From Alphaproteobacteria bacterium (GTDB lineage: Bacteria > Pseudomonadota > Alphaproteobacteria > Rs-D84), in assembly GCA_009783145.1 (NCBI GenBank), contig WRHR01000002.1:34834-98833 (forward strand): a DNA stretch of 64,000 nucleotides. Direction: 5' to 3'. Below the pieces are notes generated by a model, which had not been told where the DNA came from, did not search any database, and saw nothing but the letters and a program-made list of their open reading frames with translations. The translations under genes were made by a program, and so were the position numbers. The number at the start of each line of letters is the position of its first letter. The stretch's first letter is position 1. Shown here one piece after another: positions 112 to 52,225 of this stretch.

Positions 112-235
112 AATTAGCAATTAGCAATTAGCAATTAGCAATTAGCAGTTTGACGCAACAATAAGCATTGTCCATTATAATGGACAATGTTTCTAAATTC
201 TCCGAACCATTAATTGCTAATTGATAATTGCTAAT
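112..235. repeat. Heptamer-array hairpin element, family A: (gcaatta)x4 - spacer with TGTCCATTATAATGGACA - (taattgc)x3
   Basis: Tandem 7-mers 112-143 and inverted copies 209-235 flank perfect 18-bp palindrome 169-186. Confidence 0.85.
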
Positions 236-1015
236 TTATGGGCATTGGGACAGCAAATCCTGCACCATACGGACGTCGTCCGTTATCGAGACCGTAACTT
301 CGCGCTTCAGCCCGTCCTGAAAGGTATAAATGAACTGTGCGTCGGAAAAATCATCAAACGGCGCCAGCAGAGCGTCGAACCATTCGCGACGGTGGCACAG
401 GCAGACGTCCCGCACATCGGATACCGCATTCGCCGTCATAGTGCGCCGGTATTTCGCCTGAAGCTCGGCATCTCCGGTCACCAAGCAGCGATCGTTGAAT
501 CCGTAGAAGTTCGCGTCATCCACCATGAACTTGTATATGAGGCCGCGGGATGCCCCGGCATTTCGCAGTCTGTTCACCATTCCGCTTGTGCAGCAGGCGC
601 GCGACGCCCTCATCAGCGTTCTGTATCTTTTCACCAGCGGGCGCATATATTCCGCGTCCATATCTATTTCTTCCCCGGAATCTATCGCTCTTTGCAACGC
701 GGCCGTCCTTTCTTCCCCGATCGAGCGCGAGGGCAATTGCAACCCTTCCCTGACAAGCGGCTTGCGCGTCCAGATCCGGCACTCGGCATTCGTGAAAAAA
801 GGGCATCCCCTCTTTGAATACGGCGAAGAATAATTCAGCACGTTAAACGGTTTTCCGGCTTCGAATAAAAAGTCAAGCTCGTCAAATAAAACGGGGTCTC
901 CCTGAAAAACGATATCATCGGATATAAAGAAATCCGCGCTGCCGTCATCGGACGCAAACGCGCCGAACGAGCAAAGCGCAAACAGCAACGCGCAAATAGC
1001 AAATCTTGCTTTCAT
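236..1015 (-). CDS. Hypothetical secreted protein (cleavable signal peptide MKARFAICALLFALCSFGAFA)
   Basis: 259-aa ORF, N-terminal signal peptide; no recognisable domain. Confidence 0.5.
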   Translation of the reverse strand: MKARFAICALLFALCSFGAFASDDGSADFFISDDIVFQGDPVLFDELDFLFEAGKPFNVLNYSSPYSKRGCPFFTNAECRIWTRKPLVREGLQLPSRSIGEERTAALQRAIDSGEEIDMDAEYMRPLVKRYRTLMRASRACCTSGMVNRLRNAGASRGLIYKFMVDDANFYGFNDRCLVTGDAELQAKYRRTMTANAVSDVRDVCLCHRREWFDALLAPFDDFSDAQFIYTFQDGLKREVTVSITDDVRMVQDLLSQCP

Positions 1016-1035
1016 AATAAAGAATTATATCATAA

Positions 1036-1128
1036 ATAATGACTAATGACCAATGACTAATTACAAATGACCAATCCGCACCAAATTAGTCATTAATCAT
1101 TGGTCATTGGTCATTAAAAAAACCGCCT
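1036..1128. repeat. Heptamer-array hairpin element, family B: (aatgacN)x5 / inverted (attNgtc)x4
   Basis: taatgactaatgaccaatgactaat ... attagtcattaatcattggtcattggtcatt. Confidence 0.8.
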
Positions 1129-1147
1129 TTCGGCGGTTTTTTTTAGA
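1118..1147 (-). terminator. Intrinsic terminator (aaaccgcc-tttc-ggcggttt + T/A runs), bidirectional
   Basis: GC hairpin followed by U-tract on minus strand immediately after the stop of 1143-1817. Confidence 0.6.
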
Positions 1148-1817
1148 ATCCCTTGGGAGTTTCCATTTTGGTATTGGATATGCGCTTGTCCAATGCCGCG
1201 ACTATATCCGGCGTAATGTCCAAGCCTTTTATAGCGCTGGGCGCAACGCGGGCAAACCGGCCGTCGATTACCAATGACAGGTTCTTCTTCGCGATTATCG
1301 CATCCACTATCGGATCCAAATGATCCGACTGGATTTTGTTCAGGGCCTTTTGGAATGAAGTCTCTATCGCCTGGGCGCGAGTCGTCAGGTCCTGCTGCAA
1401 TTTGGAGACTTTCTGCTGGTATTCGACCACGCGTTTCTGCAGGGCTTCGCGCGAAAGCACGTCCTGGGACTTCTCGATCTCGACCTTTTCTTTTTCCAGC
1501 TCTTTCTGGCGGCGGGTCAGTTCGTCGCGCAGCTTGGTCTCGTACGATTCGCGCTGCTTGCGCAGGTCGATCAAGACTTTTGCCTCGGTCTGGATCGCAT
1601 CCATGCGGACGACCGCCATGCGCAGGTCCGCGCCGGTTACCGCCTCATTCGACACATGCGAAATCGCGCTATCTACCGACATCGGGCCTGAAAAATGCCG
1701 TACGGCCCAGAACCCCAAGATTGCGACAACCACAACCGCGGCGGCGATTATTCCGACTTTGGAATATTTTTTCAGATTGGCGGGAACCGCCACTTTTTTG
1801 GACATATTTACCTTCAT
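1143..1817 (-). CDS. OmpH/Skp-like periplasmic chaperone with N-terminal membrane anchor
   Basis: 224 aa, TM anchor then long K/E/Q-rich coiled coil typical of the OmpH family; call from composition only. Confidence 0.4.
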   Translation of the reverse strand: MKVNMSKKVAVPANLKKYSKVGIIAAAVVVVAILGFWAVRHFSGPMSVDSAISHVSNEAVTGADLRMAVVRMDAIQTEAKVLIDLRKQRESYETKLRDELTRRQKELEKEKVEIEKSQDVLSREALQKRVVEYQQKVSKLQQDLTTRAQAIETSFQKALNKIQSDHLDPIVDAIIAKKNLSLVIDGRFARVAPSAIKGLDITPDIVAALDKRISNTKMETPKGF

Positions 1818-1894
1818 AGCTTCTTCCTTTTTGTTATTAGGCGAGGAGAGTATAGCGAATTAATTACGGATTTCAATGAGAATTTTTGCGAAAT

Positions 1895-2596
1895 TTACCT
1901 TGCTGGAGACAGCCTGATTTCCACGCGCCGGTTCATACGGCGACCCGTATCGTCCTGGGCCGCGATCGGGCGCGCGGCGCCACGCCCGGTTATGAACATC
2001 CGCGACGTGTTGACCTCGTGCTTTGCCAGGAAAATCGCCACCCTTTGGGCCATGTCTGTCGACAGCGCAACCGCCGCGTCCTTGTCCCGCATAGCGTCCG
2101 TATATCCCGCGATTTCCATAAACGTGGCATCGTATTTTTTCAGAACCTTCGCGATGGTCTTCAACATATCCGCCCCGTCTGCGGAGATTTCCGGAGCATC
2201 CGAATACATAAACGAATCGCGCACAAGCAGCAAGACTACATCTGTCCCGACGCGCTGCACTTGGATTCCAGGCTTCAGCAAGGAATCATAAAGCTCTTGT
2301 TCCAACGCCACCATGTATTTGAATACCGCCGGGTCTATATCCGTACGGGCCGATTCCGCACCATAATTGCTGATTACTGATTGCTCATTGCCAATTAACT
2401 TGCCCCCATTGCCCAAGTAAACCGGGCGCTTTGCAATTTTCATAGTATCCGTCATTTCTCCCATGGTCGCCCCGCGAAGAATCGCGGGCCACTGGTCATG
2501 CGGCGGAGTTTTATATGCGACGCAGCCGCATATAAGAGTAAGAGAGTAGAAGAGTAGAAGAGTAGAAAAGAATGATAATAACCGATGTTTTTTCAT
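1895..2596 (-). CDS. OmpA-family peptidoglycan-binding (lipo)protein
   Basis: C-terminal OmpA_C/MotB-like domain (...TDAMRDKDAAVALSTDMAQRVAIFLAKHEV...NRRVEIRL); signal peptide encoded by the repeat at 2525-2640. Confidence 0.7.
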   Translation of the reverse strand: MKKHRLLSFFSTLLLFYSLTLICGCVAYKTPPHDQWPAILRGATMGEMTDTMKIAKRPVYLGNGGKLIGNEQSVISNYGAESARTDIDPAVFKYMVALEQELYDSLLKPGIQVQRVGTDVVLLLVRDSFMYSDAPEISADGADMLKTIAKVLKKYDATFMEIAGYTDAMRDKDAAVALSTDMAQRVAIFLAKHEVNTSRMFITGRGAARPIAAQDDTGRRMNRRVEIRLSPAR

Positions 2597-2640
2597 ATCT
2601 GATTCTCTCCTACTCTCTTACTCTTTTACTCTCATTTAAC
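2525..2640. repeat. Heptamer/octamer-array hairpin element, family C: (agagtaga)x4 / inverted (tactctc)
   Basis: gagtaagagagtagaagagtagaagagtagaaaag ... ctctcctactctcttactcttttactctc; left arm codes LLSFFSTLLLFYSLTL of the 1895-2596 product. Confidence 0.8.
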
Positions 2641-3456
2641 CCAAACCGCCACTTCGTTTTTATCCGCTTTGCGGCAGTAAGTCGCGGCGGATTCAAAGTA
2701 CCCGTTAACGCTGACGCGATCCGCCCAATCCAGCTTTACCGTCGCCAGCCAGCCGCAAGTCTTGAAATCCAGCCCATTCAGCACCAGCGCGAATTCGCGC
2801 ACTCCCGGATGGGCGAATACCGAGAAATCCGCACCCGCCAGCGGGCTTTTTTCTGTTTTCATCACACCAGATTTTACAAGATAGTCGGTGGAGATTCCCC
2901 CAAAATCACGCCGCGCGGCATACAGCAGTTTCGTATTGCTGGCAATCGCTTTCAAGTCTTCGACCGCAACCATGCGAATCTGGCGAGTGCGCACGACATT
3001 ATACATTGATATCGCGCCCGCAGTCATAACACCTGCGATTGCAAGAACGCCCAGCATCTCTATTAGCGAACGACCTGATTGCGACAGGTTGGAGGTTGGA
3101 GGTTGGAGGTTGGAGGTTATTGATTTTGTAGAACTTGAAAGCATCTTTTTTATCTCCTCACAGTCATTGTTGATATTGTTAAACCATTCTTCTGTCAGGT
3201 AATCATTATCTTTTAGCAATTCCAGCCAATACAAAGTTTCGGAACATTCTTTTAATGCTATGTATTGCTTATTTGCAAAATCTTTTCTGCTGCTGGCATA
3301 AGCAGCTTCTGCCAAATTAGCACCGATACTTGTCCCCGATCGTAAAATTTGTTTAGAAAGAATATATTCTTTTTTTTCATCACACAAAAATTTATATAAC
3401 TTTACAACTCGACTGGCAAACTTTTTACTCTTTGTAAAAATCATACTTTCTTTCAT
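2632..3456 (-). CDS. Chimeric ORF: N-terminal four-helix-bundle protein of the 23S-rRNA-IVS protein family (TIGR02436-like) + (TSNLQPP)x3 repeat linker + type IV pilin-like C-terminal half (GRSLIEMLGVLAIAGVMTAGAISMY prepilin motif)
   Basis: Residues 1-110 match the four-helix-bundle pattern (SIGANLAEA...FIALKECSETLYWLELL); AT-rich block 3125-3456; class-III signal motif internal to ORF. Confidence 0.5.
   Translation of the reverse strand: MKESMIFTKSKKFASRVVKLYKFLCDEKKEYILSKQILRSGTSIGANLAEAAYASSRKDFANKQYIALKECSETLYWLELLKDNDYLTEEWFNNINNDCEEIKKMLSSSTKSITSNLQPPTSNLSQSGRSLIEMLGVLAIAGVMTAGAISMYNVVRTRQIRMVAVEDLKAIASNTKLLYAARRDFGGISTDYLVKSGVMKTEKSPLAGADFSVFAHPGVREFALVLNGLDFKTCGWLATVKLDWADRVSVNGYFESAATYCRKADKNEVAVWVK
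3087..3118. repeat. (ggttgga)x4 tandem heptamer repeat, in-frame inside CDS 2632-3456
   Basis: ggttggaggttggaggttggaggttggagg encodes TSNLQPPTSNLQPP. Confidence 0.8.
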
Positions 3457-3460
3457 TTTT

Positions 3461-3492
3461 ACCTCCTACTTCCTACCTCTTACCTCCTACTT
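3461..3492. repeat. Family D (ggaagta/ggaggta) single arm between chimeric-gene start and dnaX stop
   Basis: acctcctacttcctacctcttacctcctactt. Confidence 0.6.
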
Positions 3493-5037: not shown

Positions 5038-5094
5038 GATATTTTATTCCTTGTCGGCTAAGAATAGCAAAAATAAACCGCGTTTCAAGGAATA

Positions 5095-5265
5095 TGTTAG
5101 TCCCCCTTGTTAAAGGGGGAATTTTTGTTAATGAGCACGAAGTGCGAATTTACAAAAATAGGGGGATTATCGTTTTATACGAACATTACAAGATAATCCC
5201 CCTAAATCGCTAAACTCGCCTACGGCTCCTTAAGCGATTTTCCCCCTCTAACGAGGGGGATGACG
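5095..5265. repeat. Cluster of three G5/C5-stem hairpins upstream of dnaX
   Basis: cccccttgttaaaggggg; agggggattatc-N22-gataatccccct; ccccctctaacgaggggg. Confidence 0.6.
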
Positions 5266-5314
5266 AATAACATAACATTTGTAAATACCGACAAAATATG
5301 GTACAATTTACATT

Positions 5315-5566: not shown

Positions 5567-6322
5567 TCCTGCCTTGCTGGCTTGCTTTATATATTTCTTG
5601 AGTCTTCTGACCAAACCTTTTCTTTTCGCCATTTTATAAGCGAAACCGCATGGTCCATTATCCATCCAAGTATTATTATATCTTTCTTCTTCCCTGTCTT
5701 TATTAAACTGTAGTAACAGCTTATCCGCGCAAGCCGGGGACATTTTTTCATCTATTATGTGCTCCGCACACTTTTTCATCTGTGCATAAATCCGTTCGGT
5801 TTGCATTTGCAAGTTTTTCAGCGTCTGCTTATCATATTTTTGGGGCTTTACAATCCATTCATCGCGAAGCACGGAATACGAGGCCGCGTTTTTTGCGATA
5901 TCCGGCACCTGACCGTCTTTACCAAAAGTTCCGTCATTATTTTTGATATAAAAATTATGAAAAATAGCAATTTCCAATTTCCGCCCGCAAATTTTCGGCT
6001 TGAAAAAGCGAATGAAATAGTCTTGCAGATACCAAACGAATTCGTTGGCGATTTCAGGGTTGCAGACTTTAAGTATTCCCGATATATCCACAAAGATATG
6101 GACGTCTATATCGCTGGACCAGGTGTAAAAATAATTCGCCGCGGAACCGATAAGAACTATGTCCATAACATCCTTGTCATGATCAAGCTTTACATGAAAC
6201 GATTCTTCAAAAAAACCCAAAAACTCCCAGGCCCACTTCAATATGCATTGCCTAGCGGGCTGTCGCAACTTTTGCGAAGGCAGCCAAATTGTTTTTAATA
6301 ATTGTCGCTTTTGGGCAAACAT
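5555..6322 (-). CDS. Nucleotidyltransferase-fold protein (Pol-beta superfamily; GS-x10-DID motif)
   Basis: IVLIGSAANYFYTWSSDIDVHIFVD = hG[GS]...DxD signature; start taken at MFAQKRQLL (6322), 7 bp after the upstream stop; AT-rich. Confidence 0.5.
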   Translation of the reverse strand: MFAQKRQLLKTIWLPSQKLRQPARQCILKWAWEFLGFFEESFHVKLDHDKDVMDIVLIGSAANYFYTWSSDIDVHIFVDISGILKVCNPEIANEFVWYLQDYFIRFFKPKICGRKLEIAIFHNFYIKNNDGTFGKDGQVPDIAKNAASYSVLRDEWIVKPQKYDKQTLKNLQMQTERIYAQMKKCAEHIIDEKMSPACADKLLLQFNKDREEERYNNTWMDNGPCGFAYKMAKRKGLVRRLKKYIKQASKAGLAV

Positions 6323-6329
6323 ATTCTGA

Positions 6330-9212
6330 TTACGGACATGACCCACCGGGTGTTTCCATTTCCAACTGAAAACATTTCGGCACACCATTCAGCTTGCCAG
6401 CCCGAGTTATATAGCTACATCTAAGTCCAGCCGCGACGCATCCTTGCGGACCTTCCAGGTATCCCGTGCAGCTTTCATCCATAAATACCCAAACATAGTC
6501 TTCTGAACTATACGTTGAATGGTGCTCGCCATCACCATCTGCATAAGTGAAGCCATATCCTATAAAACCACAGGCAGGATTTATTGCCGCCCCTATTGTA
6601 AAAAGCCCTGAATCGCATCCGAAGCCTTTTGCCGGACATTGCGAATTACGTTCAACACAAGCCGAATTCTGGCTGGAACCTTGTGGTACTCCGCATATAC
6701 TGCCCAGCCATGTCGTTTCGATTGAACAGCAATGGTTATTGTCTGAATTTGCAGAACAAGTGCAATTCTCAATAAGTTGGCCAATTTCGCATGGCGGATA
6801 AACGCAGGAATTGCCGTTCGACTCTTGCCCTGTCGGACAGCAATACTGATTAATACCGGAAGTGCTTACGTCGCCGGGGCAAGCGCAAGACCCATCCATA
6901 GGGAAGTTTGCCGTCGAGCACTTGGGCTTACAGCCGTCGTCCCATGCTTGCCCGGACGGACAGCAATGTCCATGACTGGCGTTGCTGCAAGAGCACTCGT
7001 CCGTAGCGGGTCCCGGGATCGGGCACGGAGGCTTGCCCGTAACGCAATTCATCCCGTTCCAAATCTGTCCGACACCGCAATCCGGCTGACAACGGTTGAG
7101 GTTAATGTTCCAAACTTCGCCCGGCTCGCAGACGCCGTACGGCAATTCGCAGCGTCCCGAGATTACCAGATACCCGGCTTCGCAGACGCAGCGCTCATTC
7201 ACATAGAATCTCTGCAGACCCGTGTTTGGATCCGTTTGATATATTTGCCCAGGCCTTGGAATCGGCGCACCGACCTGCAACGACACCCAAGATGAATAAT
7301 CCGGACACAGCATCGACTGATAGAAGATATCCGATATGCTTTCTATGCATGTGTTCGGCTCGTCTATCGGACAAGCAACTTGATCGTCCGAGAACACCGC
7401 ATAGCCGCAAGTCAGCGCAACGTTCCGACACGCTCCTTTCAGCACCGCGTACACATTGTTGATATTCGCGTTATTAGACCAAGAATTAATCTGCATAACC
7501 TGCTGCGAATAGCACGCCGAAATTTCCGCCATACAACTGGAAGCGTAATCCGATATGATCCTTTCCTGAGCGGCGCGGATGCTGACCATCGCCCGCTGGA
7601 TATAATTCACCAATATATTATTCTTGTTGTTATACTTGCCGCGGTCGTCGTAAGTAAATGCGCGGCACTTGTCCAAGACCGGGCGGCAAAGGCCGCTGTT
7701 CGCATTGTCCCCCATTCCTATCTTCGAAAGCAGATACCGCACGATGCACTTGCCGTTATTGTTTTGAGCGTCGCAGGCGGAATAGCCGGACATGCTCCAC
7801 GCGCTGTTGATAAAGTTCGCATCTATCAGCGAATTATCATAATTAACCATCATCTTTCTTATCATAGAAATATTCTGGCCCAGTATGACTTCGCCATTTT
7901 CGTCTATGAATCTTTTTGTCGGATCCAAGCATTTCGCCATGTCGGCGCCGCAAACCATGTCGTCCTTCATGCATTGCTCCAAGGCCCCGACGCAGCCCTT
8001 GGCGTCGTACGCATTGTGGTCCTGCAGCACGGCCAGACGCGCCTTTTGCAGCATCTGCGTTGCGCTGCGCACGTTGGATTTAAGGGTATCGTTCATCTTT
8101 TCCAATCCCTTTTCGTACGCGATGCAGTCCTTGTCTATCTCCACGTCATAGCGGCCCGTAACCTGCCCGGTGTTCGCGCCCTTGGCCTTGCATGCGTTTA
8201 TCACGGGCGCGCAGCGCTTTTGCGCCATTTTGAACAAGTCCGTCCCGCGAAGGTTCGCAAACGAGGTATTGTTGTTCAGGCTGAACATTTCCGTAAAGTC
8301 CGTATCCAAATCGAAGTCCAAATCCAAATCCAGTCCGAAGTTGTTGTTGCCTTCCGCCACAAAAGATTCTGGGGTGCGTATCAGCTTTTCGATATCCGAC
8401 AGCATTCTGCGCGATTGGGTTGTGTCGCGGGCGTTCTGCAGTTCCAGCTCCGCTTCGGTGGCGGACATAATCGCGCGGATTTCCGGAGCCGTCAGCCCGA
8501 CATAGCGGATGCGCTGCGCCACGTCGTTCAACTGGCTGTTCGCTTCCTTTACGGCGCTTTCCACTCGCGCGTAAGACGACAAGCGCCCCGAACAGGCGCA
8601 TCGCTTTTGATTCGCGTCGATTACCGCGCAGAACTGATCCATGCAATCCGTGTACTGCACCATGCACGAATCGGTCGCAGCGCTGGTTTCTTCCCAGTTA
8701 AGCGCAGGCGCAGCAGGCGCAGAGGTCGCCGCGCGCGCCGTCAGATTACGGTTTTCGGCGCTTATATTCGAACCGGTTTGAAGGTCCGTGCCGACAATTT
8801 TCGCCCGTCCTCCGACTTCCGCCGTAGTCGGGCGCAAGGTAACCCCCGCGCGCCGCATAGGCGCGGACGCGTTCAGGCTTGCGGCATCGGTGCGCGCGGC
8901 GCGCCCTACTTGACGCGCGGCTTCGGTTATCGGGCTGGCGCGTCCGGATGCGGCCGGGGCCGCGTTCGCAACTTGACGAGATACGACTGCGCCGCGAGGA
9001 GACGGTGTCGCAGCTTGGACGCCAACTGCCGCCGGCTGATTCGCCGTTACGCGCGATACAACAGCGCCTTGGGTTTCAGTCTGATTTTGCGCGGACGAAG
9101 CGGCTGTAACGCCAACCTGCTGGCCTGGAATCGCGCGCGACGGGGCAACGTCAGCGGCCAGCGCCATGCCAGCGCAAAGAGCAAAGAACAAAGAGCAAAG
9201 AGCAAGTCTTTT
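6330..9212 (-). CDS. Large secreted Cys-rich protein B (signal peptide, A/T/G/R-rich disordered region, conserved Cys core, C-terminal Cys-dense repeats)
   Basis: about 960 aa from MKRLALCSLFFALCAGMALA; paralogous to 9215-11356 (YTDCMDQFCAV...RCACSGRL vs YYTCMDEICTA...RCACAGRV). Confidence 0.6.
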   Translation of the reverse strand, partial: KRLALCSLFFALCAGMALAADVAPSRAIPGQQVGVTAASSAQNQTETQGAVVSRVTANQPAAVGVQAATPSPRGAVVSRQVANAAPAASGRASPITEAARQVGRAARTDAASLNASAPMRRAGVTLRPTTAEVGGRAKIVGTDLQTGSNISAENRNLTARAATSAPAAPALNWEETSAATDSCMVQYTDCMDQFCAVIDANQKRCACSGRLSSYARVESAVKEANSQLNDVAQRIRYVGLTAPEIRAIMSATEAELELQNARDTTQSRRMLSDIEKLIRTPESFVAEGNNNFGLDLDLDFDLDTDFTEMFSLNNNTSFANLRGTDLFKMAQKRCAPVINACKAKGANTGQVTGRYDVEIDKDCIAYEKGLEKMNDTLKSNVRSATQMLQKARLAVLQDHNAYDAKGCVGALEQCMKDDMVCGADMAKCLDPTKRFIDENGEVILGQNISMIRKMMVNYDNSLIDANFINSAWSMSGYSACDAQNNNGKCIVRYLLSKIGMGDNANSGLCRPVLDKCRAFTYDDRGKYNNKNNILVNYIQRAMVSIRAAQERIISDYASSCMAEISACYSQQVMQINSWSNNANINNVYAVLKGACRNVALTCGYAVFSDDQVACPIDEPNTCIESISDIFYQSMLCPDYSSWVSLQVGAPIPRPGQIYQTDPNTGLQRFYVNERCVCEAGYLVISGRCELPYGVCEPGEVWNINLNRCQPDCGVGQIWNGMNCVTGKPPCPIPGPATDECSCSNASHGHCCPSGQAWDDGCKPKCSTANFPMDGSCACPGDVSTSGINQYCCPTGQESNGNSCVYPPCEIGQLIENCTCSANSDNNHCCSIETTWLGSICGVPQGSSQNSACVERNSQCPAKGFGCDSGLFTIGAAINPACGFIGYGFTYADGDGEHHSTYSSEDYVWVFMDESCTGYLEGPQGCVAAGLRCSYITRAGKLNGVPKCFQLEMETPGGSCP

Positions 9213-9214
9213 CA

Positions 9215-15876: not shown

Positions 15877-15995
15877 TGGTTCTGGCGACGACCTACTCTT
15901 CCGTGGCTTAAGCCAAAGTACCATTGGCGATGCAGGGTTTCCCTGTCTGGTTCGGGATGGAACAGAGGGTGGCTCCCGCTCAATAATCACCAGAA
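15877..15995 (-). rRNA. rrf: 5S ribosomal RNA
   Basis: ...CCAUCCCGAACCAGACAGGGAAACCCUGCAUCGCCAAUGGUACU...GGAAGAGUAGGUCGUCGCCAG; flanked by 16-nt inverted processing arms 15870-15885 / 15989-16004. Confidence 0.85.
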
Positions 15996-16155
15996 CCAAT
16001 TTCTGCGCTTGTCCGCCGTAGCTTTAGCGAAGGCGGAAACATCGTAATTCAAAATATCAAAGAATCCATTCTTTCAACATACTCTTCAAGCATTCTGTTT
16101 GATTTCACGGCGCGCGAGGCGTCATGAAATCAAACAAAGATAAAAAGTCGATCAT

Positions 16156-19027
<2,872 letters not shown>

Positions 19028-19062
19028 TTTATCCAATGCTTGAAGAGTAGGTCGTAACGCGA

Positions 19063-19170
19063 GACGCGAGACACGAAACGCGAAAAAACCAACTGCTTCA
19101 AATTTGGTAAAATAACTTGAATGAGCTATAATCGCACGCGTCACGCATCTCGCGTTTCGCGTCTCGATTT
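19063..19170. repeat. Heptamer-array hairpin in the tRNA-23S spacer: (cgcgaga)x2(cacgaaa)(cgcgaaa) / inverted (tctcgcg)(tttcgcg)(tctcg)
   Basis: cgcgagacgcgagacacgaaacgcgaaaa ... cgtcacgcatctcgcgtttcgcgtctcg. Confidence 0.7.
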
Positions 19171-19603
19171 TCAGCAGTTGTAAGTTGATTCTTGTTCTTT
19201 GAATTGAATTTCATCGCGACGCAACCCGGGCCCTGAAAAAATCATAGATTTTTTTGGGTGGGAATTCGCGACGATACTTCTATTTTCAGAAAGATATTTT
19301 GAGATTATTACGATGTCTATTTAGTAGCTAGAAGCTACTAAACAAACACAAAAACCGATTCACAATATAAAGCAGATTCACATATGCGAACATATGGAAT
19401 CATTGGTAAATTCCGGGTTCGCACCGAGATGCGAACACGGGCTTGTCCGAAGACAAACAATTTACCAATGATTCCAACCTCATCAAAAAATAATACCAAA
19501 CTTGAACAGTCCCCCTTCGCGCTTTGCGCTTCGGGCGACACTCCTTCGCCTTCGCTGCTCGGCTTGGGTGGCTTGCCACCCGAAGCCTCGCAGAGGCGAA
19601 GGG

Positions 19604-19680
19604 TGGTGGGTCAGGAAGAACTCGAATCTTCGACCTCCGCTGTATCAGAGCGGCATTCTAACCAACTGAACTACTGACCC
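19604..19680 (-). tRNA. tRNA-Ile (anticodon GAU), CCA encoded
   Basis: Cloverleaf; anticodon loop CUGAUAC. Confidence 0.85.
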
Positions 19681-19685
19681 AAACT

Positions 19686-19761
19686 TGGTGGAGCCAATCG
19701 GACTCGAACCGACGACATCCACGTTGCAAACGTGGCGCTCTACCAGCTGAGCTATGACCCC
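19686..19761 (-). tRNA. tRNA-Ala (anticodon UGC), CCA encoded
   Basis: GGGGUCAUAGCUCAGCUGGUAGAGCGCCACGUUUGCAACGUGGAUGUCGUCGGUUCGAGUCCGAUUGGCUCCACCA. Confidence 0.9.
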
Positions 19762-19889
19762 GAAACAAACTCTGGGGACAACAATGGTTAAAAATTTGCT
19801 TTGCTGATACCAAAGTTTCTTCATCTTGTAAAGGGATGTTCAGACAGTCGTTTGGATTAATGACACTTCGTGAGAAGTGTTTTATCTAT

Positions 19890-21585
<1,696 letters not shown>

Positions 21586-21939
21586 TTAGAAAACTTGTTT
21601 GTTTGTCCGTGCACTAAACTAAACTGACATTGAATGTTAGTTCGTTTTACTATTTCGCAAGACAAGTATTTTAACGAGGCCACAAAATTTTGTAACCTAC
21701 TACCTGTCTAGGATATGCACTATGACAATTGTCAAAGTTTGGATTTTCCCAAATTCAACTGTCTGCACATCCCTTCTTTTTATGATTTGTATTTTGCAAC
21801 GCAAAACACCCATCATAAATCTTGATGAGCTGCTTTATTCACAATGTTGCGATTTTTCCTGGGACAACGAATCGTGTTGTTTCCATAAAACCGCAGAATT
21901 TCAGGGGTTGAAGCTTTTGTTCCAACTTGAAAGCCCGCA

Positions 21940-23086: not shown

Positions 23087-23347
23087 GGTCCAGAATTGGT
23101 TAAATTCCAGGTCAAGGCGGCAGGGAAATTAAAACAAGAACAAGGACTTTCGCGAAACAAGTATATTATACTTGTGAGCGGAAAGCCGCAGTTATTGGTT
23201 TAATTTGACGCCGTCCCGAAGGATGTGGCTAAAATCCCCCATCGCTTTGTCAAACCGGCTCGTCGTATTATATACGCCTTCGCCGATTTTCCGCGCGCTG
23301 TGCGATTTTATCTCGCACCTTGACCTGGAATTTAACCAATCCTGGAC
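23087..23347. mobile_element. MITE-like element: 261 bp bounded by 31-bp terminal inverted repeats, no ORF
   Basis: ggtccagaattggttaaattccaggtcaagg ... ccttgacctggaatttaaccaatcctggacc (30/31 match). Confidence 0.6.
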
Positions 23348-23430: not shown

Positions 23431-23520
23431 TGTCGTTCTAGTATACTAGAACGGCAAGTATAAAATAAAATGTCCATTATAACGGACAACGTTCATTATC
23501 GCGTACGACTTATGATTAGG
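23431..23520. repeat. Composite palindromic element: TTCTAGTATACTAGAA + TGTCCATTATAACGGACA + cgacttatgatta (copy 1)
   Basis: Homologous to 52131-52225. Confidence 0.7.
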
Positions 23521-24846: not shown

Positions 24847-25611
24847 TTACTCAATAAGTTTAATTTCTTTTGCATTCAATTCGCGAACTTTGCCGGGCGC
24901 CAGATCACCCAGCCGGGTCGGTCCGTAAGATTCGCGATGAAGTTTTTTCACCAAAAATCCAAGATAGTCCATAACTATTCTAATCTCATTCTTTTTGCCT
25001 TCTTGCAATGTCAGGCGAACGGTTAAGGGATATCGCGACAGCAACTCTATCTCCATCGGCGCATATTGCACCCCGTCGATTTTTATCCCATTTCGCGCAT
25101 TATCAAAAATAAAATCATCGGAATTTAAGGGCGATAGAAAACCGCGCAAAGCCTTTGCCCGCGCAGGTGACTTTATTTCCGCAAAACTCTTGGGATGCAG
25201 CCCGGCGACATAAACTCGTTTTATTCCGCTGGAGGGCAAAGTCAGCCGCCGCGCCAGTTCGCCATCGTTCGTCAGCAGCAGCAAGCCCGTAGTTTTATAA
25301 TCCAATCTTCCAACATATTTGAAATTATGCAGCTTTGCCGGCAAGTAATCATAAATCGTCGCGCGCGCTTGCGGATCGCTGCGGGTCGTCATAGTATTTA
25401 TCGGTTTATTAAAAGCAAAAATTCGAGCCTGCGATTCGCCGGCTAATGATTTGCCATCAACTAAAATTTTCTCGTCGCCATTTATAAAAAATACTGGCGT
25501 AAGAATTTTCTCGCCATTCACGAAAACCTTGCCGTCGACGATAAGCTTTTCCGCCTCGCGGCGCGACGCGATTCCAGAGTCTGCGATAAATTTGGCGATT
25601 CTTGTTTTCAT
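24847..25611 (-). CDS. rluB: Ribosomal pseudouridine synthase, RsuA/RluB family (S4 domain + catalytic GRLDYKTTGLLLLTNDG)
   Basis: S4-like N-terminus, conserved catalytic Asp motif. Confidence 0.8.
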   Translation of the reverse strand: MKTRIAKFIADSGIASRREAEKLIVDGKVFVNGEKILTPVFFINGDEKILVDGKSLAGESQARIFAFNKPINTMTTRSDPQARATIYDYLPAKLHNFKYVGRLDYKTTGLLLLTNDGELARRLTLPSSGIKRVYVAGLHPKSFAEIKSPARAKALRGFLSPLNSDDFIFDNARNGIKIDGVQYAPMEIELLSRYPLTVRLTLQEGKKNEIRIVMDYLGFLVKKLHRESYGPTRLGDLAPGKVRELNAKEIKLIE

Positions 25612-25613
25612 TA

Positions 25614-25738
25614 ATTAGCGATTAGCAATTATCAATTAGCGATTAAAAATGCAACAATATGAAATGTCCAATATACTGGACAATGTTATTACCAGTTCCC
25701 CAATTGCTAATCGCTAATTGCTAATCGCTAATTCCTTT
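25614..25738. repeat. Heptamer-array hairpin element, family A (second copy) with central TGTCCAATATACTGGACA
   Basis: ttagcgattagcaattatcaattagcgatt ... ttgctaatcgctaattgctaatcgctaatt; shared gcaacaata flank. Confidence 0.85.
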
Positions 25739-30384: not shown

Positions 30385-30403
30385 TAAAAAACCTTCGGTT
30401 TTT

Positions 30404-30525
30404 AAGTAGGAAGTAGGAGGTAGGAAGTAGGAAATAAAAAGCAACAATAAACGATGTCCATTATAATGGACAACGATTACCTTACTCTATCACTTCCTAC
30501 TTCCTACCTCCTACTTCCTACTTCT
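30404..30525. repeat. Heptamer-array hairpin element, family D: (ggaagta)xn - TGTCCATTATAATGGACA - (tacttcc)xn
   Basis: taagtaggaagtaggaggtaggaagtaggaaat...cttcctacttcctacctcctacttcctacttc; palindrome at 30455-30472. Confidence 0.85.
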
Positions 30526-33004: not shown

Positions 33005-33838
33005 TTATAGCACATTAGCGCGCGCTAGTTCAACAAACTTTTCCATAGGCAATTCTTCCGCGCGCTCTTGCCCGGTTAATCCGAATTGCGACCAATCGAC
33101 GCCGGGCATAATGCTGCGTATCATTTTCCTCCGCTGGCCGAAAAGCTTCGCGGTCAGCTTTTCAACGGATGACAGCTGAATTGTTTTTTTATCTTTCGGG
33201 ATTATCTGCACAACCGCGCTTTGGACTTTCGGCGCGGGGAAAAAAGCGGTATTCGGAATATTGAATAAAATCTTCGCGTCCGCAACCAAAGCGGTAAGAA
33301 CGCTCAGCCGGCCGTATTGCTTATCGCCGACGCGCGCGACGATTCTATCCGCCACTTCGCGCTGGAACATTAAGGTCATAGAGTGGAGAGTGGAGAGTGA
33401 AGAGTGTAGTTGGTGCAGCCACTGAATTAAAAGTTCAGTTCCGATATTATACGGAAGGTTGGAACAAATTGCTAAATCATCTGCACTCTTCACTCTCCAC
33501 TCTTCACTCTTGAAATATTTCAATGCGTCGCCATAAATAACTTCCAGGCGGCCGTCTGCGGCGTTCGAAATTTTTTTCAAAATCAGCCCGGTCGCACGGT
33601 CTTTTTCAATCGCGATAACTCGCGCGGCGCCGCACTCCAGCAAAGCGCGCGTCAGGCCGCCCGGCCCTGGGCCGACTTCGACAACCGTAGCGCCCTGTAT
33701 GCCCGGCACGCTGCGCGCTATTTTCCGCGTGAGGTTCAGATCGAACAGGAAATTCTGGCCCAGCTGCTTTTTGGGTTCCAGGCCCGCATCGCGCATCATT
33801 TCTGCAACTGGGGGAAGATTTAATAATTTTTCATTCAT
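33005..33838 (-). CDS. rsmA: 16S rRNA (A1518/A1519) dimethyltransferase
   Basis: SAM motifs VVEVGPGPGGLT, NLPYNI; contains a 28-bp inverted repeat pair in-frame. Confidence 0.85.
   Translation of the reverse strand: MNEKLLNLPPVAEMMRDAGLEPKKQLGQNFLFDLNLTRKIARSVPGIQGATVVEVGPGPGGLTRALLECGAARVIAIEKDRATGLILKKISNAADGRLEVIYGDALKYFKSEEWRVKSADDLAICSNLPYNIGTELLIQWLHQLHSSLSTLHSMTLMFQREVADRIVARVGDKQYGRLSVLTALVADAKILFNIPNTAFFPAPKVQSAVVQIIPKDKKTIQLSSVEKLTAKLFGQRRKMIRSIMPGVDWSQFGLTGQERAEELPMEKFVELARANVL
33379..33512. repeat. Inverted heptamer arrays (gagtgaa/gagtgga ... cactctt/cactctc) inside the rsmA coding sequence
   Basis: atagagtggagagtggagagtgaagagtgtag and ctgcactcttcactctccactcttcactcttg, 71 bp apart, bracketing the NLPYNI codons. 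Confidence 0.85.
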
Positions 33839-45671: not shown

Positions 45672-45673
45672 TC

Positions 45674-46312: not shown

Positions 46313-46317
46313 TCCAC

Positions 46318-49400: not shown

Positions 49401-49444
49401 AACATAATCGTAGTAACCGGCCGCTGCACGAAAAATTTTATCAT
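46439..49444 (-). CDS. acrB: RND multidrug efflux permease (AcrB/HAE1 family)
   Basis: 1001 aa, 12 TM, two large periplasmic loops; contains an in-frame (aagaata) repeat at 47943-47983. Confidence 0.85.
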   Translation of the reverse strand: MIKFFVQRPVTTIMFVLLWVVLGIVAFPKMNVERIPPIDLPMVTATLVYPGASPAEIETQVVQKAEDAMSEVAGIKRIQSQAFENGGFVMAEFNIGVNVNDKAAEVKAKLDAISNEFPEGLKQPVVEKLNPLQQSVVDIVLTGTNPRDLEFYVNDALANKITAVKGVASVSLFGGESRAVRIFMNPELMAARGVAVMDIVGALAAHNLNVPGGKIEAGQDSNNIRFIGEFQSVDDIKGLHITTAEGQNFALRDIADVKDAARDIETGARYDGKPVVILSVVKATDGNAIKIANQLHKQLPALEKDMQTRYPDARMEIISDSSVAVSKETNNTILGIVLGLALTVLTLLFFTRNWRSTVIAGIVIPASLVAGFLFMDAAGFTINAMTLLACSSALGTLISNAIVLIEAALKELDVGKTPEQAAVDGTKKVVVPILAATGTNIVVFLPIAFMGGIAGQFMAQFGLTVVFLTILSLMFSFTLTPMMIAKILRKNKEKRIKNKEKKNDNSLSWFKPIYDWQLKKPWQAVGIAAAVLVLSLIPMRWVGNEFRPDIDASQITVTARAPAGSSYAKAEKIALQIEEKLREFTEVKSTSVKIGERGVQNVTVKVELVPYGKRKLSDKRLAQVMLPALSQIPDAEIQIRAGEAMGGDYSSDMILDINGEDDTKREAYADQVIELLNRIPEIQSAVRAQQAPGMEITFVPDADAMSFWGIKNAYAGTALRTALFGNDSYKYKEAGKEYPIVLEFAKPFKNREMFDSVFVASQKGLVPMSELGEIKFAQATPDIRRLDKNRITEININLGKSTIGPVQSRIESALKTIDWAPGYYAQFGGMSEIQSETTGEIGQAFLLATILTFMLLAAMMNTWVHPFTIATGILTSFSGVFILMFLSGATINVAAMLAIVMLVGLVVNNNILLLEPTIARINQGESRTSALWAEFNDKKRMILMATIAVAAGMVPQLWSVDGMKSSMAAVICGGILASLFWTFMVTPAIFTLMERVRNRNK

Positions 49445-49466
49445 TTTAAAAACCTTTGGTTTTATT

Positions 49467-49590
49467 AGGTAGGAGGTAGGAAGTTGGAGGTAGGAGGTAA
49501 GAGAGTAAAAGTTTTTTCTTTTAATTTATAGAATAAATTCTTAATCACCAACTTCCTACCTCCTACTTCCTACTTTCTACTTTTGTCCCT
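49467..49590. repeat. Heptamer-array hairpin element, family D with central ttggtgattaagaatttat core (inverted relative to the 53330-53462 copy)
   Basis: taggtaggaggtaggaagttggaggtaggaggtaagagagtaaaag ... accaacttcctacctcctacttcctactttctac. Confidence 0.8.
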
Positions 49591-50123
49591 TCTTCCACCC
49601 TGGAAAGAATAATCACATCGCCGTCATTCAATCCGCGCTGGATTATGGCGTTTTCTGAATCTGCGCCCAGCACTTTCACTTCGCGGCGCACCGCGATTCC
49701 GTTTTCCAGGGCCATCACGGCACTGTTATTCACCGCGTAAATCGGAACCATAATACCAGTATATCTCGCTTCGGCGAATTGCTCGCCATCTTCGGCCCCC
49801 TGCGTTTTTATCATATACATTCCGGTATCCAGGTCCAGTCTGGAAGCGACGGAAACTATGCGCCCCGCGCCGACGCGCTGACCCACGCCGAACTTTCCAA
49901 TGCGGGCTCCGGACACGAACGAGCGGTTATTATGGATGAACAAGGGCTCGCGCAATACGCCCATTTCTTCCTGCGCGGTAATGGTTTGAACGGGCACGTG
50001 CGAGGCGCGCGCGGCGTTGAATACTTCGCGTTTGCTTTCCGAATAAATCGAATGGACGCGGAATCCGATCCAGCCCGCCATTATAACGCCTAATAAAATA
50101 TATATTGTCTTTTTCATAACCAC
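49563..50123 (-). CDS. Short RND periplasmic adaptor (membrane fusion protein) lacking the alpha-hairpin region
   Basis: 186 aa, N-terminal TM + beta-barrel/MP-like C-terminal half; position between tolC and acrB. Confidence 0.5.
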   Translation of the reverse strand: MVMKKTIYILLGVIMAGWIGFRVHSIYSESKREVFNAARASHVPVQTITAQEEMGVLREPLFIHNNRSFVSGARIGKFGVGQRVGAGRIVSVASRLDLDTGMYMIKTQGAEDGEQFAEARYTGIMVPIYAVNNSAVMALENGIAVRREVKVLGADSENAIIQRGLNDGDVIILSRVEEGTKVESRK

Positions 50124-50133
50124 CCCGTTTTAT

Positions 50134-51462
50134 TTATGATTTTTCGCCATTAAGTTTCTTAATTTGTTCCGCGGACATCAGCAAATTATATTTCGCGTTC
50201 AAGACCGCCATATCCATCTGAGACAATGCAGCCGATACGTCGGACAGCTCCACCGCGCTGGTTTGCCCGGCCGCAAACCTGTCGCGGGAATATCCGTACG
50301 CTTTCTCGGCCAAATTGCGCGCGTTTTCAAGACCCGCTAAGTTCCCCCGCAGGTGGTCGTACCTTTTCACCGCGGTATTATACTCCTCGGACTTGAGCTT
50401 TTTGGACTTGTCCAAGTCCTGGCGCGCCGCTTCGGCATCCATTGCGGCGACCGTGGCATTGGCGCGGTTCAGGCCTCCGTCGAAAATCGGCACGGTCAAG
50501 CTGAGGCCCCAATAAGCGTTTTGCGCCTTGCTTCCATTCCACAGCTGATAGTCGTCTTTCATAGCGACGTAGTTATAAGACGCCATCGCCGCCAAGGTGG
50601 GCAAATATCCGGCGCGCTTCGACGAAGCATTCCTCTCATGCATCCTCACCTGCTGGGACAGCAAGTCCCATTCCGGATTGTTTTCCATCTTGCCCGCTTC
50701 CAGCATGCCAAAGGAGGACGGGAAATCGTCGAGCAGGACCAACTGCTCGTCCGCGTCGATGCCAGCCATGATTTTCAGCATCCTTTGCGCAGTGTCGCGG
50801 TTAAACTGAGCATCGGACAGGTTTATTTCCTTGGCGGCGATGTCGGCTTCTATCTTCACAAGGTTGGCGCGGGACGCGCGGCCGGCGCTGGTCAGCTTTT
50901 TCCTCGCGGCATATGCGTCATTCAAAGATTTTTCGGAAATCGTAACCGCACCGTCCGCCATTTTTGCCGTCCAATACAATTGGGCCGCCGCATAGCGCAC
51001 TTCGCGGCGGGTCAGCTCCTTGCCGGATTCGGACATCTTTATCGCGCTACGCAGGCCATCGACCGCATATCCTATTTTCCCAAAGGTATAAATCGGCTGA
51101 GTGATTGTCACGCCGGCTATCAGAAAATTATCGGGAATGGAAATATTTTGATTTCCGTTGTTAATCTGAGCAAGCAGCCCGCCGAATTCCGGCGGCAGAT
51201 CCACGCCTTCGGAGCTGAAGGGTTTGCGAACGTTAATAAGGTTCATATATGTTGCGGTGCCCTCTACATGAAACCAGCGGTTGGCATTCGCGGCACTAAG
51301 CCCGGCTTGGGCCTTTCTTAAATTCGCGTCGGCTTTTTTCGCGTCGTGCGATTCGGCTTCTATCATCTTGACGGCGTCCTCGAAAGAAAGATCGCGCGCA
51401 TACGCGCCGGGCAACACAAACGCACTCGCCAATACGGCGTAAAGTAATTTATTCACCTGCAT
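50134..51462 (-). CDS. tolC: TolC-family outer-membrane efflux channel
   Basis: Signal peptide, duplicated OEP repeats, 442 aa. Confidence 0.8.
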   Translation of the reverse strand: MQVNKLLYAVLASAFVLPGAYARDLSFEDAVKMIEAESHDAKKADANLRKAQAGLSAANANRWFHVEGTATYMNLINVRKPFSSEGVDLPPEFGGLLAQINNGNQNISIPDNFLIAGVTITQPIYTFGKIGYAVDGLRSAIKMSESGKELTRREVRYAAAQLYWTAKMADGAVTISEKSLNDAYAARKKLTSAGRASRANLVKIEADIAAKEINLSDAQFNRDTAQRMLKIMAGIDADEQLVLLDDFPSSFGMLEAGKMENNPEWDLLSQQVRMHERNASSKRAGYLPTLAAMASYNYVAMKDDYQLWNGSKAQNAYWGLSLTVPIFDGGLNRANATVAAMDAEAARQDLDKSKKLKSEEYNTAVKRYDHLRGNLAGLENARNLAEKAYGYSRDRFAAGQTSAVELSDVSAALSQMDMAVLNAKYNLLMSAEQIKKLNGEKS

Positions 51463-51518
51463 TTCTCCTTGTTTTCACATTTTGCAACGCCATCGGCGTA
51501 TCCTCACGATGCGCACAT

Positions 51519-51547
51519 CAAAAATTTTCTAATAACGAAAATTTTTG
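51519..51547. promoter_or_regulatory. Inverted repeat CAAAAATTTTC-N7-GAAAATTTTTG between marR and tolC, candidate MarR operator
   Basis: Perfect 11-bp arms in the promoter region of the efflux operon. Confidence 0.4.
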
Positions 51548-51571
51548 TGTGCTTTTACGCTCGGATTCATT

Positions 51572-52006
51572 TTATTGTTCCATTTTGTTCAGAAGTTTAT
51601 TTATGGTTTCCAAAGCATCGGTAAGCTTTTCCTCGTCCTGGCGACTGATTCCGGAAAAGAATTCTTCGACCCGCGTCCGCAGCAGGTCCATCGCGCGATC
51701 GGCCAATTTGGCACCCTTGGCGCTTACGGAATACCAAGTGTTGCGCCGGTCGGATTCGTCGATTTCGCGGCTGATCAGCCCGTCCTTTTCAAGATTTCTG
51801 AAAAGCGCGCATAAATTCGACGCTGGCGTCATTTCGCGCCGCGCGATATCTTTCAGCTTCGCGCGCCCCGACAGGCGCAGGCGAACAATCATCTGAAGTT
51901 GTGCGCGCGAATATCCAAAGAAGTCCGCGCCGGCTTTCAACCTGTCCGACATCCTGTCTATGGCCCGCATATTGCTTTCGATAAGTTCTACAAATCTTTT
52001 CTTCAT
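51572..52006 (-). CDS. marR: MarR-family transcriptional regulator
   Basis: Winged HTH (LSGRAKLKDIARREMTPASNLCALFRNLEKDGLISREIDESDRRN). Confidence 0.8.
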   Translation of the reverse strand: MKKRFVELIESNMRAIDRMSDRLKAGADFFGYSRAQLQMIVRLRLSGRAKLKDIARREMTPASNLCALFRNLEKDGLISREIDESDRRNTWYSVSAKGAKLADRAMDLLRTRVEEFFSGISRQDEEKLTDALETINKLLNKMEQ

Positions 52007-52130
52007 GATTTATTGTCCTCTATAATTATTATAGATAATAATAATTATTACAGACAATAAAATAATTTGCAAGGAAAATTTTCATAAGCCGCGAATCGTA
52101 AGCCGTTAACGGATGGCTTGGCGATAATAT

Positions 52131-52225
52131 TTGCTATTCTAGTATACTAGAATAGCAAACATAAAACCAAATGTCCATTATAATGAACATTGTCCATTGT
52201 TGCATTCGACTTACGATTAACGATT
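52131..52225. repeat. Composite palindromic element copy 2: TTCTAGTATACTAGAA + TGTCCATTATAATGAACA + cgacttacgattaacgatt
   Basis: Homologous to 23431-23520. Confidence 0.7.

Follow-up and report, generated by a model that had tools for sequence, protein, structure and literature searches.

Results

Five palindromes cap long hairpins between minus-strand genes

The DNA analyzed here, a 64-kb window of contig WRHR01000002.1 from a metagenome-assembled alphaproteobacterium (G+C content about 50%, three HIP1 sites), carries an 18-bp palindrome, TGTCCATTATAATGGACA, in short spacers between minus-strand open reading frames (ORFs). An earlier note on this DNA had counted five copies and read them as operators of a dimeric regulator or as promoters inside a palindrome. 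With up to three mismatches allowed, the 18-mer and its near relatives were found at five sites, compared with 0.03 expected, and none of 100 dinucleotide shuffles reached five. The motif is thus real, but only two copies are exact, i.e., those at 169–186 (element E1) and 30455–30472 (E4). The copies at 23471–23488 (E2, TGTCCATTATAACGGACA) and 52172–52189 (E5, TGTCCATTATAATGAACA; one base to the left of the 52173–52190 given before) have one mismatch each, and the copy at 25665–25682 (E3, TGTCCAATATACTGGACA) has two. The imperfections of E2, E3 and E5 (in E5 a U·G) are all compatible with G·U pairing on the minus strand, the strand of the flanking genes. As the earlier note had described, all five copies lie between co-directional minus-strand genes, the left neighbor of E1 being cut by the window edge. 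A TATAAT core, previously ascribed to all copies, can be read on both strands only in those at 169, 30455 and 52172, which have an intact ATTATAAT center.

The shared flank noted before three of the copies was likewise found, as GCAACAATA on the plus strand at 155–163 (E1), 25651–25659 (E3) and 30441–30449 (E4). On the minus strand it reads TATTGTTGC and gives a −10-like TATTGT from the sixth base after the palindrome. A fourth occurrence, GCAACAAT, stands on the opposite side of the E5 copy, in inverted orientation (52196–52203, minus strand); about two GCAACAAT are expected in the whole window. The copies at 23471 and 52172 are accompanied by a second palindrome, GTTCTAGTATACTAGAAC or ATTCTAGTATACTAGAAT, i.e., (G/A)TTCTAGTATACTAGAA(C/T), at a center-to-center distance of 36 bp. 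In E2 this palindrome (palA, GTTCTAGTATACTAGAAC) occupies 23435–23452, and in E5 the palA core (52136–52153) is part of a perfect 28-bp palindrome, TTGCTATTCTAGTATACTAGAATAGCAA, at 52131–52158. The two-palindrome composite of the E2 type is kept in another species (L008).

Every copy forms the apex of a hairpin of 130–150 nt (−41 to −80 kcal/mol, z −3.8 to −15.5), in agreement with the earlier description of the palindrome as the center of hairpin elements. In four of the five elements the arms are inverted tandem arrays of 7-nt units, e.g., AATTAGC or AAGTAGG. E1 has an (AATTAGC)x5 left arm at 112–147 (Tandem Repeats Finder, 100% matches), which pairs in the fold with the inverted TAATTGC array of the right arm at 211–236; the latter overlaps the stop codon of the ORF at 236–1015. 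In E3, the AATTAGC/AATTAGCG left arm (25613–25645) abuts the start codon of an rsuA-like gene at 25611, and the inverted right arm (25702–25733) consists of AATCGCT/AATTGCT units. E4 has (AAGTAGG)n at 30404–30433, assigned from array and fold, and the inverted (ACTTCCT)n at 30492–30524. As minus-strand (sense) RNA, E4 folds to −80.5 kcal/mol. The sense strand folds better than the plus strand, by 2–15 kcal/mol, in four of the five elements and in 13 of 18 heptamer hairpins.

The window holds many further heptamer-array hairpins with other loops. The core recurs in different arms and the arms recur with different loops, i.e., the modules are shuffled. Two AAGTAGG-armed hairpins, at 49467–49582 and 53334–53463, have another loop module in common (ggtgattaagaatttat...cttactctc) in opposite orientations. 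A small AAAAACC-NNN-GGTTTTT hairpin precedes the AAGTAGG elements; the one upstream of yidC (30386–30403) contains the likely Shine-Dalgarno (SD) sequence. When the window was compared with Rfam 15 (gathering score and E ≤ 1), only rRNA and tRNA passed, and the hairpins matched only miRNA-precursor models below threshold.

Several familiar identities for the 18-mer were considered and rejected. The half-sites TGTCC and GGACA are not enriched alone (73 and 69 observed, about 62 expected), which does not fit a DNA-uptake sequence. Paired palindromes are not strictly phased with the DNA helix, with center spacings of 22, 27, 32, 33, 36 and 40 bp. The generally known boxes of NrdR, TrpR, TyrR, CRP/CooA, LexA and Fur/Irr do not fit in spacing or context. 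A cyanobacterial origin of the window, to which the heptamer repeats had pointed (Nostoc), was dismissed as well, given the G+C content of about 50%, the mere three HIP1 sites and relatives that are Alphaproteobacteria MAGs.

E3 and E4 lie where genes of relatives overlap

Homologs of YidC led to four syntenic relative loci (L098, L099, L100 and L101; 65–84% protein identity), which have the gene order recR-ksgA-kefC-lspA-yidC-rsmE-traG-rsuA in common with the window. In L098, L099/L100 and L101, lspA and yidC overlap (TAATG). At the same junction the window has E4, about 126 nt on the minus strand (30385–30510) between lspA (stop 30511) and yidC (start 30384). Similarly, traG and rsuA overlap (GTGA) in L098, L099 and L100, where the window has E3, about 102 nt (25612–25713, minus strand) between the traG/virD4-like and the rsuA-like gene. 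E3 and E4 hence show presence/absence polymorphism at orthologous sites, both being absent from L098, L099/L100 and L101. Moreover, no family palindrome was found in 58 kb of largely syntenic DNA from L098–L102, with the near-identical L099 and L100 counted once.

The first heptamer of the E3 right arm extends the native traG codons GAA TTA GCG, a microhomology with the target. The arrays supply new C-terminal residues and stop codons to the flanking genes, in E4 the last codons and the stop of lspA. We detected no target-site duplication at the E3 and E4 junctions and no terminal inverted repeats of fixed sequence, the arms differing between copies (AATTAGC, AAGTAGG and others). Judging from this synteny, E3 (palindrome at 25665) and E4 (30455) are lineage-specific insertions, a feature of these apparently recent copies that the earlier note had missed. 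Since they are present where the genes of relatives overlap, the copies travel as small insertion modules, similar to repetitive extragenic palindromes (REPs) or to MITEs (transposable elements of miniature size with inverted repeats). At the lspA-yidC junction, L103 has a heptamer hairpin without the core, and L102 has other arrays forming a heptamer hairpin, also without it. The core therefore behaves as a separate module in the hairpin apex.

The palindrome belongs to a family in termite-gut Alphaproteobacteria

Exact 18-mer scans of genomes and metagenomes gave two kinds of hits, i.e., isolated ones in unrelated phyla and a coherent termite-gut set. The latter consists of metagenome-assembled genomes (MAGs) of Alphaproteobacteria/'Rickettsiales' and of termite-gut metagenomes, often with heptamer arms and the second palindrome. 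The exact 18-mers in unrelated phyla, at XRE, ArsR and toxin-antitoxin promoters, were judged to be convergent overlaps of operator and −10 element and were not taken as the same family. Viral contigs scanned with the 18-mer and with the profile of the helix-turn-helix (HTH) protein described below yielded nothing useful, and the sequences had no match in the searchable literature.

After deduplication the termite-gut set comprises 82 instances with the consensus TGTC[CT]AnTATAnT[AG]GACA. The variants are overwhelmingly symmetric (AATATATT, CTATAG, TTTATAAA, TGTCTA...TAGACA), and Watson-Crick pairing at positions 5/14, 6/13 and 7/12 therefore lies 7–10 standard deviations above the shuffled expectation. 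On their 5' side the instances are flanked by A-rich and on their 3' side by T-rich sequence, with T at −1, C or G at −2 and A-rich sequence beyond.

Genes flanking the occupied intergenic regions were checked with Pfam. Among 33 such regions, 11 are convergent, 6 divergent and 16 co-directional, compared with 42:39:146 in the background. As all intergenic classes are occupied, the element is neither a pure promoter nor a pure terminator. Some copies lie within coding sequences (CDS), namely in xseA (two palindromes in two species; L056, 1812–1892, and L034), def (L035, 778–795) and miaB (L049, 4338–4355). Their frame is always xTG-TCC-AxT-ATA-xTG-GAC, and they always translate as S-[IN]-I-[ML]-D-N. 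In-frame insertion, as for the palindromic elements of Rickettsia, was rejected because the XseA, Def and MiaB copies align gap-free to the orthologous region. In xseA, 26 consecutive bases over the first palindrome are identical, while the aligned stretch has a mean column identity of 82% and its flanks have visibly diverged. This conservation exceeds what the protein requires and fits a selected DNA site.

Two side observations concern the surroundings of the family. Another widespread palindromic repeat, of the gtcattgcgag...cgaagcaatccag type, adjoins family palindromes at L021 (5190–5262), L088 (1390–1440) and L103 (1950–2110). Family palindromes also lie just downstream of grpE in three genomes (L027, 5394–5482; L019, 7288–7628; L109, 7203–7314), the spot in L109 being three genes from an HTH cassette.

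The palindrome family accompanies a small HTH gene and follows its recognition helix

At L068, eight copies of TGTCTATTATAATAGACA surround an orphan gene of 99–109 amino acids. Its product scores 35.8 against Pfam PF21716 (dnstrm_HI1420, antidote HTH; gathering threshold 27). Homologs fall into 27 clusters with 62–100% identity, and all clusters with a named source are annotated as Alphaproteobacteria MAG or as 'DNA-binding phage protein'. Against NCBIfam TIGR02684 the HTH proteins score 23–35, i.e., below the cut-off of 53.7, and a PDB sequence search with the HTH profile gave no significant hit. The best fold matches of an AlphaFold2 (AF2) model were HipB, controller C-proteins and XRE repressors. 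Among the called genes adjoining the HTH gene in L104–L111 and L068, there was no toxin partner of the HI1419/Gp49-like killer type. By their profile scores, the proteins appear to be divergent members of PF21716 'dnstrm_HI1420' from termite-gut Alphaproteobacteria that lack a toxin partner.

Six HTH loci were then chosen by protein identity alone and not by palindrome. Each is flanked by 3–13 palindromes of a single variant. In these loci, 37 sites lie within 1.5 kb of the HTH gene and one site in the remaining 60.6 kb; control loci chosen by YidC homology had one site in 64 kb. The site variant follows the predicted recognition helix. SRSSFYNILS, found in P0125 (L104) and P0133 (L107/L108, up to 13 copies), goes with TGTCCAATATATTGGACA, and SRSGFYRILS, found in P0121 and in P0122 (L111/L112), goes with TGTCTATTATAATAGACA. 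Three other helices have three other sites, i.e., SRPGFYNILS (P0128, L106) has TGTCTAATATATTAGACA, SKSGFYKMLS (P0126, L105) has TGTCCACTATAGTGGACA and SKSGFYNMLS (P0142, L109/L110) has TGTCCTTTATAAAGGACA. The same helix is thus paired with the same site in two pairs of proteins, in a small sample of five helices and five sites. The variable block in the protein alignment is exactly the predicted HTH.

All seven HTH gene loci inspected have the layout cTTGTC[CT]-palindrome-4/5 nt-TATAAT-SD-ATG with a perfect TATAAT, and the left half-site cTTGTC[CT] of the promoter-proximal palindrome occupies the −35 position. In E1, E3 and E4, a TATTGT has this offset from the palindrome, on the strand from which the downstream genes are read. 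Palindromes right after HTH stop codons have extended complementary flanks. Two HTH paralogs with other site variants (L110, L111) occur in ERZ27257320, the same ENA assembly as the window contig.

Two of these loci have features of their own. Directly downstream of the HTH gene in L108, at 6316–7081, 11 palindromes are spaced by about 65–119 bp with duplicated multi-unit blocks; this array resembles a centromere or titration array. It was not taken as CRISPR-like, because its 'spacers' are themselves tandemly duplicated units. The surroundings of the HTH paralog of L104 are prophage-like and include T7-type capsid, terminase, portal and DnaB genes; in both L104 (14497) and L036 (1479–1496), a family palindrome lies close upstream of the T7-like terminase gene, in a divergent region. 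This context hints at an origin from a phage repressor.

Promoter and terminator signals at the window copies

The earlier note had proposed that the central TATAAT serves as a −10 element. A consensus promoter scan from 22 to 32 kb covered three window copies and called a promoter at none of them, and when the palindrome flanks were inspected manually, all window copies lacked a suitably spaced −35 or TGn partner. Moreover, the seven HTH promoters use a separate perfect TATAAT 4–5 nt downstream of the palindrome, with the left half-site as −35, and the marR gene at E5 and the 300-aa gene at E2 have better promoter-like sites downstream of, and outside, the elements. This proposal is hence not supported.

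The same note had dismissed a terminator role because of the AT-rich stem. This was unjustified, given the very stable hairpins, the better sense-strand folding in four of five elements, the A-tract/T-tract flanks and the 11 of 33 occupied regions that are convergent. The terminator scan listed the three scanned copies on the minus strand with a T-rich tail, each with only three G-C pairs and an interrupted T run. In several relatives, the A-tract and T-tract flanks are typical of bidirectional terminators. All five unambiguous co-directional cases have their G·U on the sense strand; once ambiguous cases are included the ratio is 7 to 3, which is not significant. Given the G·U-compatible imperfections, the sense-strand folding and the extended flanks behind the HTH stop codons, the elements may plausibly act at the RNA level as well, for instance as a 3' hairpin or as a site of processing.

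Two further repeats stand near these promoter-like sites. Downstream of E2, at 23090–23335, a TTGAAA-17-TATAGT promoter-like site is followed by a long inverted repeat, ggtccaggattggttaaattccaggtcaagg ... ccttgacctggaatttaaccaattctggacc, which brackets about 200 nt of the 5' region of the 300-aa secreted-protein gene and may be either a leader with secondary structure or one more insertion. At 52022–52060, between the marR start codon and a promoter-like pair (TTGCAA/TAATAA), there is a tandem 19-mer (ATAATTATTACAGACAATA x2), which probably serves MarR as operator in the marR-OEP-MFP-RND efflux operon.

Discussion

Proposed orphan operators of an HTH family

The explanation that we favor, with belief and doubt about equally weighted, is that the window palindromes are orphan operator copies of a clade-restricted family of XRE/HigA-like HTH proteins of about 100 amino acids, carried on modules inserted at hairpin tips. 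A dimer of the HTH protein would bind the palindrome at its own gene, where overlap with the −35 position would give autoregulation. The five window sites would be orphan operators on short modules with a core of about 40–60 nt, placed at the apex of intergenic heptamer-array hairpins, and at least two modules entered the lineage by insertion at junctions where the genes of relatives overlap. Since TATTGT in E1, E3 and E4 has the offset found in the regulator promoters, these modules may supply weak, repressible transcription to the downstream gene, i.e., a gene of unknown function, the rsuA-like gene and yidC, respectively. Where insertions break up former operons ahead of rsuA and yidC, such a supply would be understandable, and read-through RNA would fold into a long hairpin. 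The operator proposal of the earlier note is thus largely supported, in that the palindrome family is nearly confined to the HTH gene and its variant tracks the recognition helix, but the partner of the exact 18-mer was not found.

A number of results weigh against this explanation. There is no HTH gene within the window, no HTH paralog flanked by the exact variant TGTCCATTATAATGGACA was found among the loci examined, and the about 60 loci fetched with the 18-mer contain no HTH gene except L068, which is flanked by a different variant. Confidence in the AF2 model of the protein is low (pLDDT 65), and the fold matches that it gave are weak (E about 1). We infer binding from association only, and likewise dimer stoichiometry, promoter activity and regulatory consequence. 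The putative promoter of E1, E3 and E4 has a score of 8 of 12, and the consensus scan does not report it; E2 and E5 are in opposite orientation, and their sense strand has no TATTGT. No intergenic class is free of sites, and 11 of the occupied regions are convergent and need neither promoter nor operator. Finally, some flank positions covary as well, and the stem-extending pair −2/+2, the sense-strand folding advantage and the G·U bias of the sense strand suggest that selection acts to some extent on the hairpin, too.

A first alternative is a selfish REP- or MITE-like hairpin repeat, in which the palindrome is a mere self-complementary stem of single-stranded DNA or RNA that spreads non-autonomously and has no regulatory role. 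The HTH gene would then be merely repeat-associated, as the REP-associated tyrosine transposase (RAYT) is for REPs, or a hotspot of copy accumulation. The polymorphism of E3 and E4 at junctions that overlap in relatives is consistent with such spread, as are the core-less hairpin of L103 and the other arrays of L102 at the E4 junction, the module shuffling, the roughly two-fold enrichment in convergent regions with all classes occupied, and the frequent tandem clusters, which resemble bacterial interspersed mosaic elements. Compensatory symmetric variants and stems lengthened by variable complementary flank bases also suit a stem. However, a 100-aa HTH protein cannot catalyze transposition, no transposase was seen adjoining the repeats, and neither a target-site duplication nor a fixed terminal inverted repeat could be defined. 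Most relatives have almost no dispersed sites outside the HTH cassette, and the XseA, Def and MiaB copies are not insertions and are conserved at synonymous positions. One site variant per protein variant, together with a fixed promoter-operator geometry, is what cognate sites predict. We therefore consider a purely selfish repeat unlikely.

An RNA signal in the sense transcript appears less probable still. The 18-mer would form the apical stem-loop (7–10 bp with a UAUA loop) of a hairpin, at a 3' end or between cistrons, that acts as a weak intrinsic terminator, as a block to 3'-exonucleases or as an RNase III processing site. The sense-strand terminator listings with their T-rich tails speak for it, as do the A-rich 5' and T-rich 3' flanks over the 82 instances (aaaaaagt-palindrome-acttttttt between convergent genes), the G·U instead of C·A in the three imperfect window copies and in the five clearly co-directional cases, the sense-strand folding advantage of elements and heptamer hairpins, and the copies with extended complementary flanks right after the HTH stop codon. 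On the other hand, the operons into which E3 and E4 were inserted are translationally coupled in relatives, and a terminator at these positions, ahead of rsuA and yidC, would do harm. Six occupied regions are also found between divergent genes. G-C pairs make up only 3/7 of the stem, and many copies adjoin separate canonical GC-rich terminators. The G·U bias loses significance with the ambiguous cases, and transcription and replication are co-oriented in the window. A pure RNA role would leave unexplained why the sequence is conserved beyond pairing and why it tracks the HTH protein.

A bidirectional −10 in the central TATAAT, with transcription starting 7–10 nt downstream on either strand, is very improbable: three copies have a perfect TATAAT on both strands and in unrelated bacteria what look like genuine promoters of XRE, ArsR and toxin-antitoxin genes are overlapped by the identical 18-mer (e.g., L044, TTGACA-17-TATAAT), but besides the missing −35 or TGn partners and the separate promoters of marR, the 300-aa gene and the HTH genes, variants keep symmetry over −10 consensus (e.g., TGTCCTTTATAAAGGACA gives TATAAA) and sites also lie between convergent genes.

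Comparison with known systems

The HTH protein and its sites resemble XRE-type systems such as HipB and the HigA/HI1420-type antidotes, in which a small XRE-like HTH protein has several operators that overlap its own promoter. The HipB operator, TATCC-N8-GGATA, has the same half-site geometry as TGTCC-N8-GGACA, i.e., pentamer half-sites 8 bp apart in an 18-bp palindrome, and some of the relatives read TATCC/GGATA. The weak fold matches and the PF21716 hit point in the same direction. Unlike XRE antitoxin systems, however, no toxin partner is called in the gene tables examined, a cassette has up to 13 sites both upstream and downstream of the gene, several paralogs each have a private site dialect, and orphan sites are dispersed to unrelated intergenic regions and CDS.

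Correia elements of Neisseria (Correia repeat enclosed elements, CREE, or Neisseria miniature insertion sequences, NEMIS) have several generally known properties in common with E1–E5. They are hairpin-forming, measure about 100–150 nt and lie between genes, including within operons; they can carry promoter-like hexamers and protein-binding sites, and their transcripts form long hairpins. In contrast to Correia elements, the arms described here are inverted tandem-heptamer arrays that differ from copy to copy, there is no fixed terminal inverted repeat or TA duplication, and the apex is conserved instead of the ends. The small dispersed repeats (SDRs) and heptamer repeats of Nostoc are likewise very small conserved modules with intergenic heptamer tandem repeats; to our knowledge, no associated DNA-binding protein has been described for SDRs. 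SDR5 inserts precisely into another palindrome (PMC4390886), and the GGGAATC heptamer repeats of Xanthomonas form paired inverted heptamer arrays (PMC4692102). The Nostoc and Xanthomonas repeats are set apart from ours by another phylum and other sequences.

Putative mobile promoters are homologous promoter-like segments upstream of non-homologous genes in one genome (PMC3488235, Matus-Garcia et al. 2012). The segments described here would be similar in being copies of the regulator's own promoter-operator, but the window copies are putative promoters only and are embedded in hairpins. With REPs and REP doublets (REPINs) (PMC3116915, PMC3733652) the family shares short extragenic palindromes in many copies, tandem clusters and some preference for the 3' sides of genes, and, as in REPIN-RAYT systems, each sequence variant is tied to a variant of one flanking gene. 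Whereas RAYTs are Y1 HUH transposases, this gene encodes an HTH protein of about 100 amino acids. The loci examined showed no RAYT, although no exhaustive RAYT scan was made. The flank matrix moreover has no GTAG/CGTC head as in REPs, the center is AT-rich, and copies are cassette-confined in most relatives.

These likenesses allow a wider reading, which we offer tentatively and regard as doubtful, i.e., that a REP-RAYT-like partnership with an orphan antitoxin-like HTH family, with paralog-specific 18-bp dialects, arrays of up to 13 sites and seeded orphan sites, could form an undescribed genome-wide system for DNA marking, regulation or chromosome organization specific to termite-gut Alphaproteobacteria. 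Orphan sites would then stand at heptamer-hairpin tips, inside operons and inside the CDS of XseA, Def and MiaB, with that of XseA, the sole coding site compared between species, held by selection; such a system might derive from a prophage repressor. XRE operators, REP/MITE-like repeats, heptamer repeats and mobile promoters are each known singly. Their combination, i.e., an orphan antitoxin-like HTH family with private dialects, gene-flanking site arrays and dispersed orphan sites at hairpin tips, appears to be undescribed.

If the orphan-operator explanation is true, the window would offer a testable case of an operator that has escaped its home locus and was copied even between the translationally coupled essential genes lspA and yidC, and escaped operators could rewire transcription. 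It would also connect subjects that are commonly studied apart, namely repressors of the toxin-antitoxin type, dispersed REP/MITE-like palindromes and heptamer tandem repeats. The five helix variants with their five site variants are a natural specificity series for XRE-type HTH proteins. Moreover, the elements explain odd gene-end annotations in these MAGs, such as array-encoded C-termini of the type ...ELAISN*, and mark a lineage-specific burst of intergenic expansion.

Repeat hairpins in rRNA genes and ksgA

The minus strand of the window holds an rRNA operon at 15880–21586, in which the 16S match is 1697 nt long compared with a model of 1533 nt. An octamer array, AGAGTAAG, lies inside the 16S span at 21367–21401 and a heptamer-array hairpin (ATAAGTT/TTATAAC) inside the 23S span at 18394–18472. 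These repeat hairpins seem to be inserted in the rRNA genes and to resemble intervening sequences. The spacer tRNAs of the operon are in the order 16S-Ala-Ile-23S, the reverse of the usual Ile-Ala order.

Within ksgA (33005–33838, minus strand), inverted heptamer arrays, AGAGTGG and TCTTCAC, are in frame at 33380–33511. Their translations, KSEEWRVKS and HQLHSSLSTLHS, flank the conserved motif NLPYNIG. The ksgA hairpin, which entails no net insertion relative to orthologs, folds better on the plus strand.

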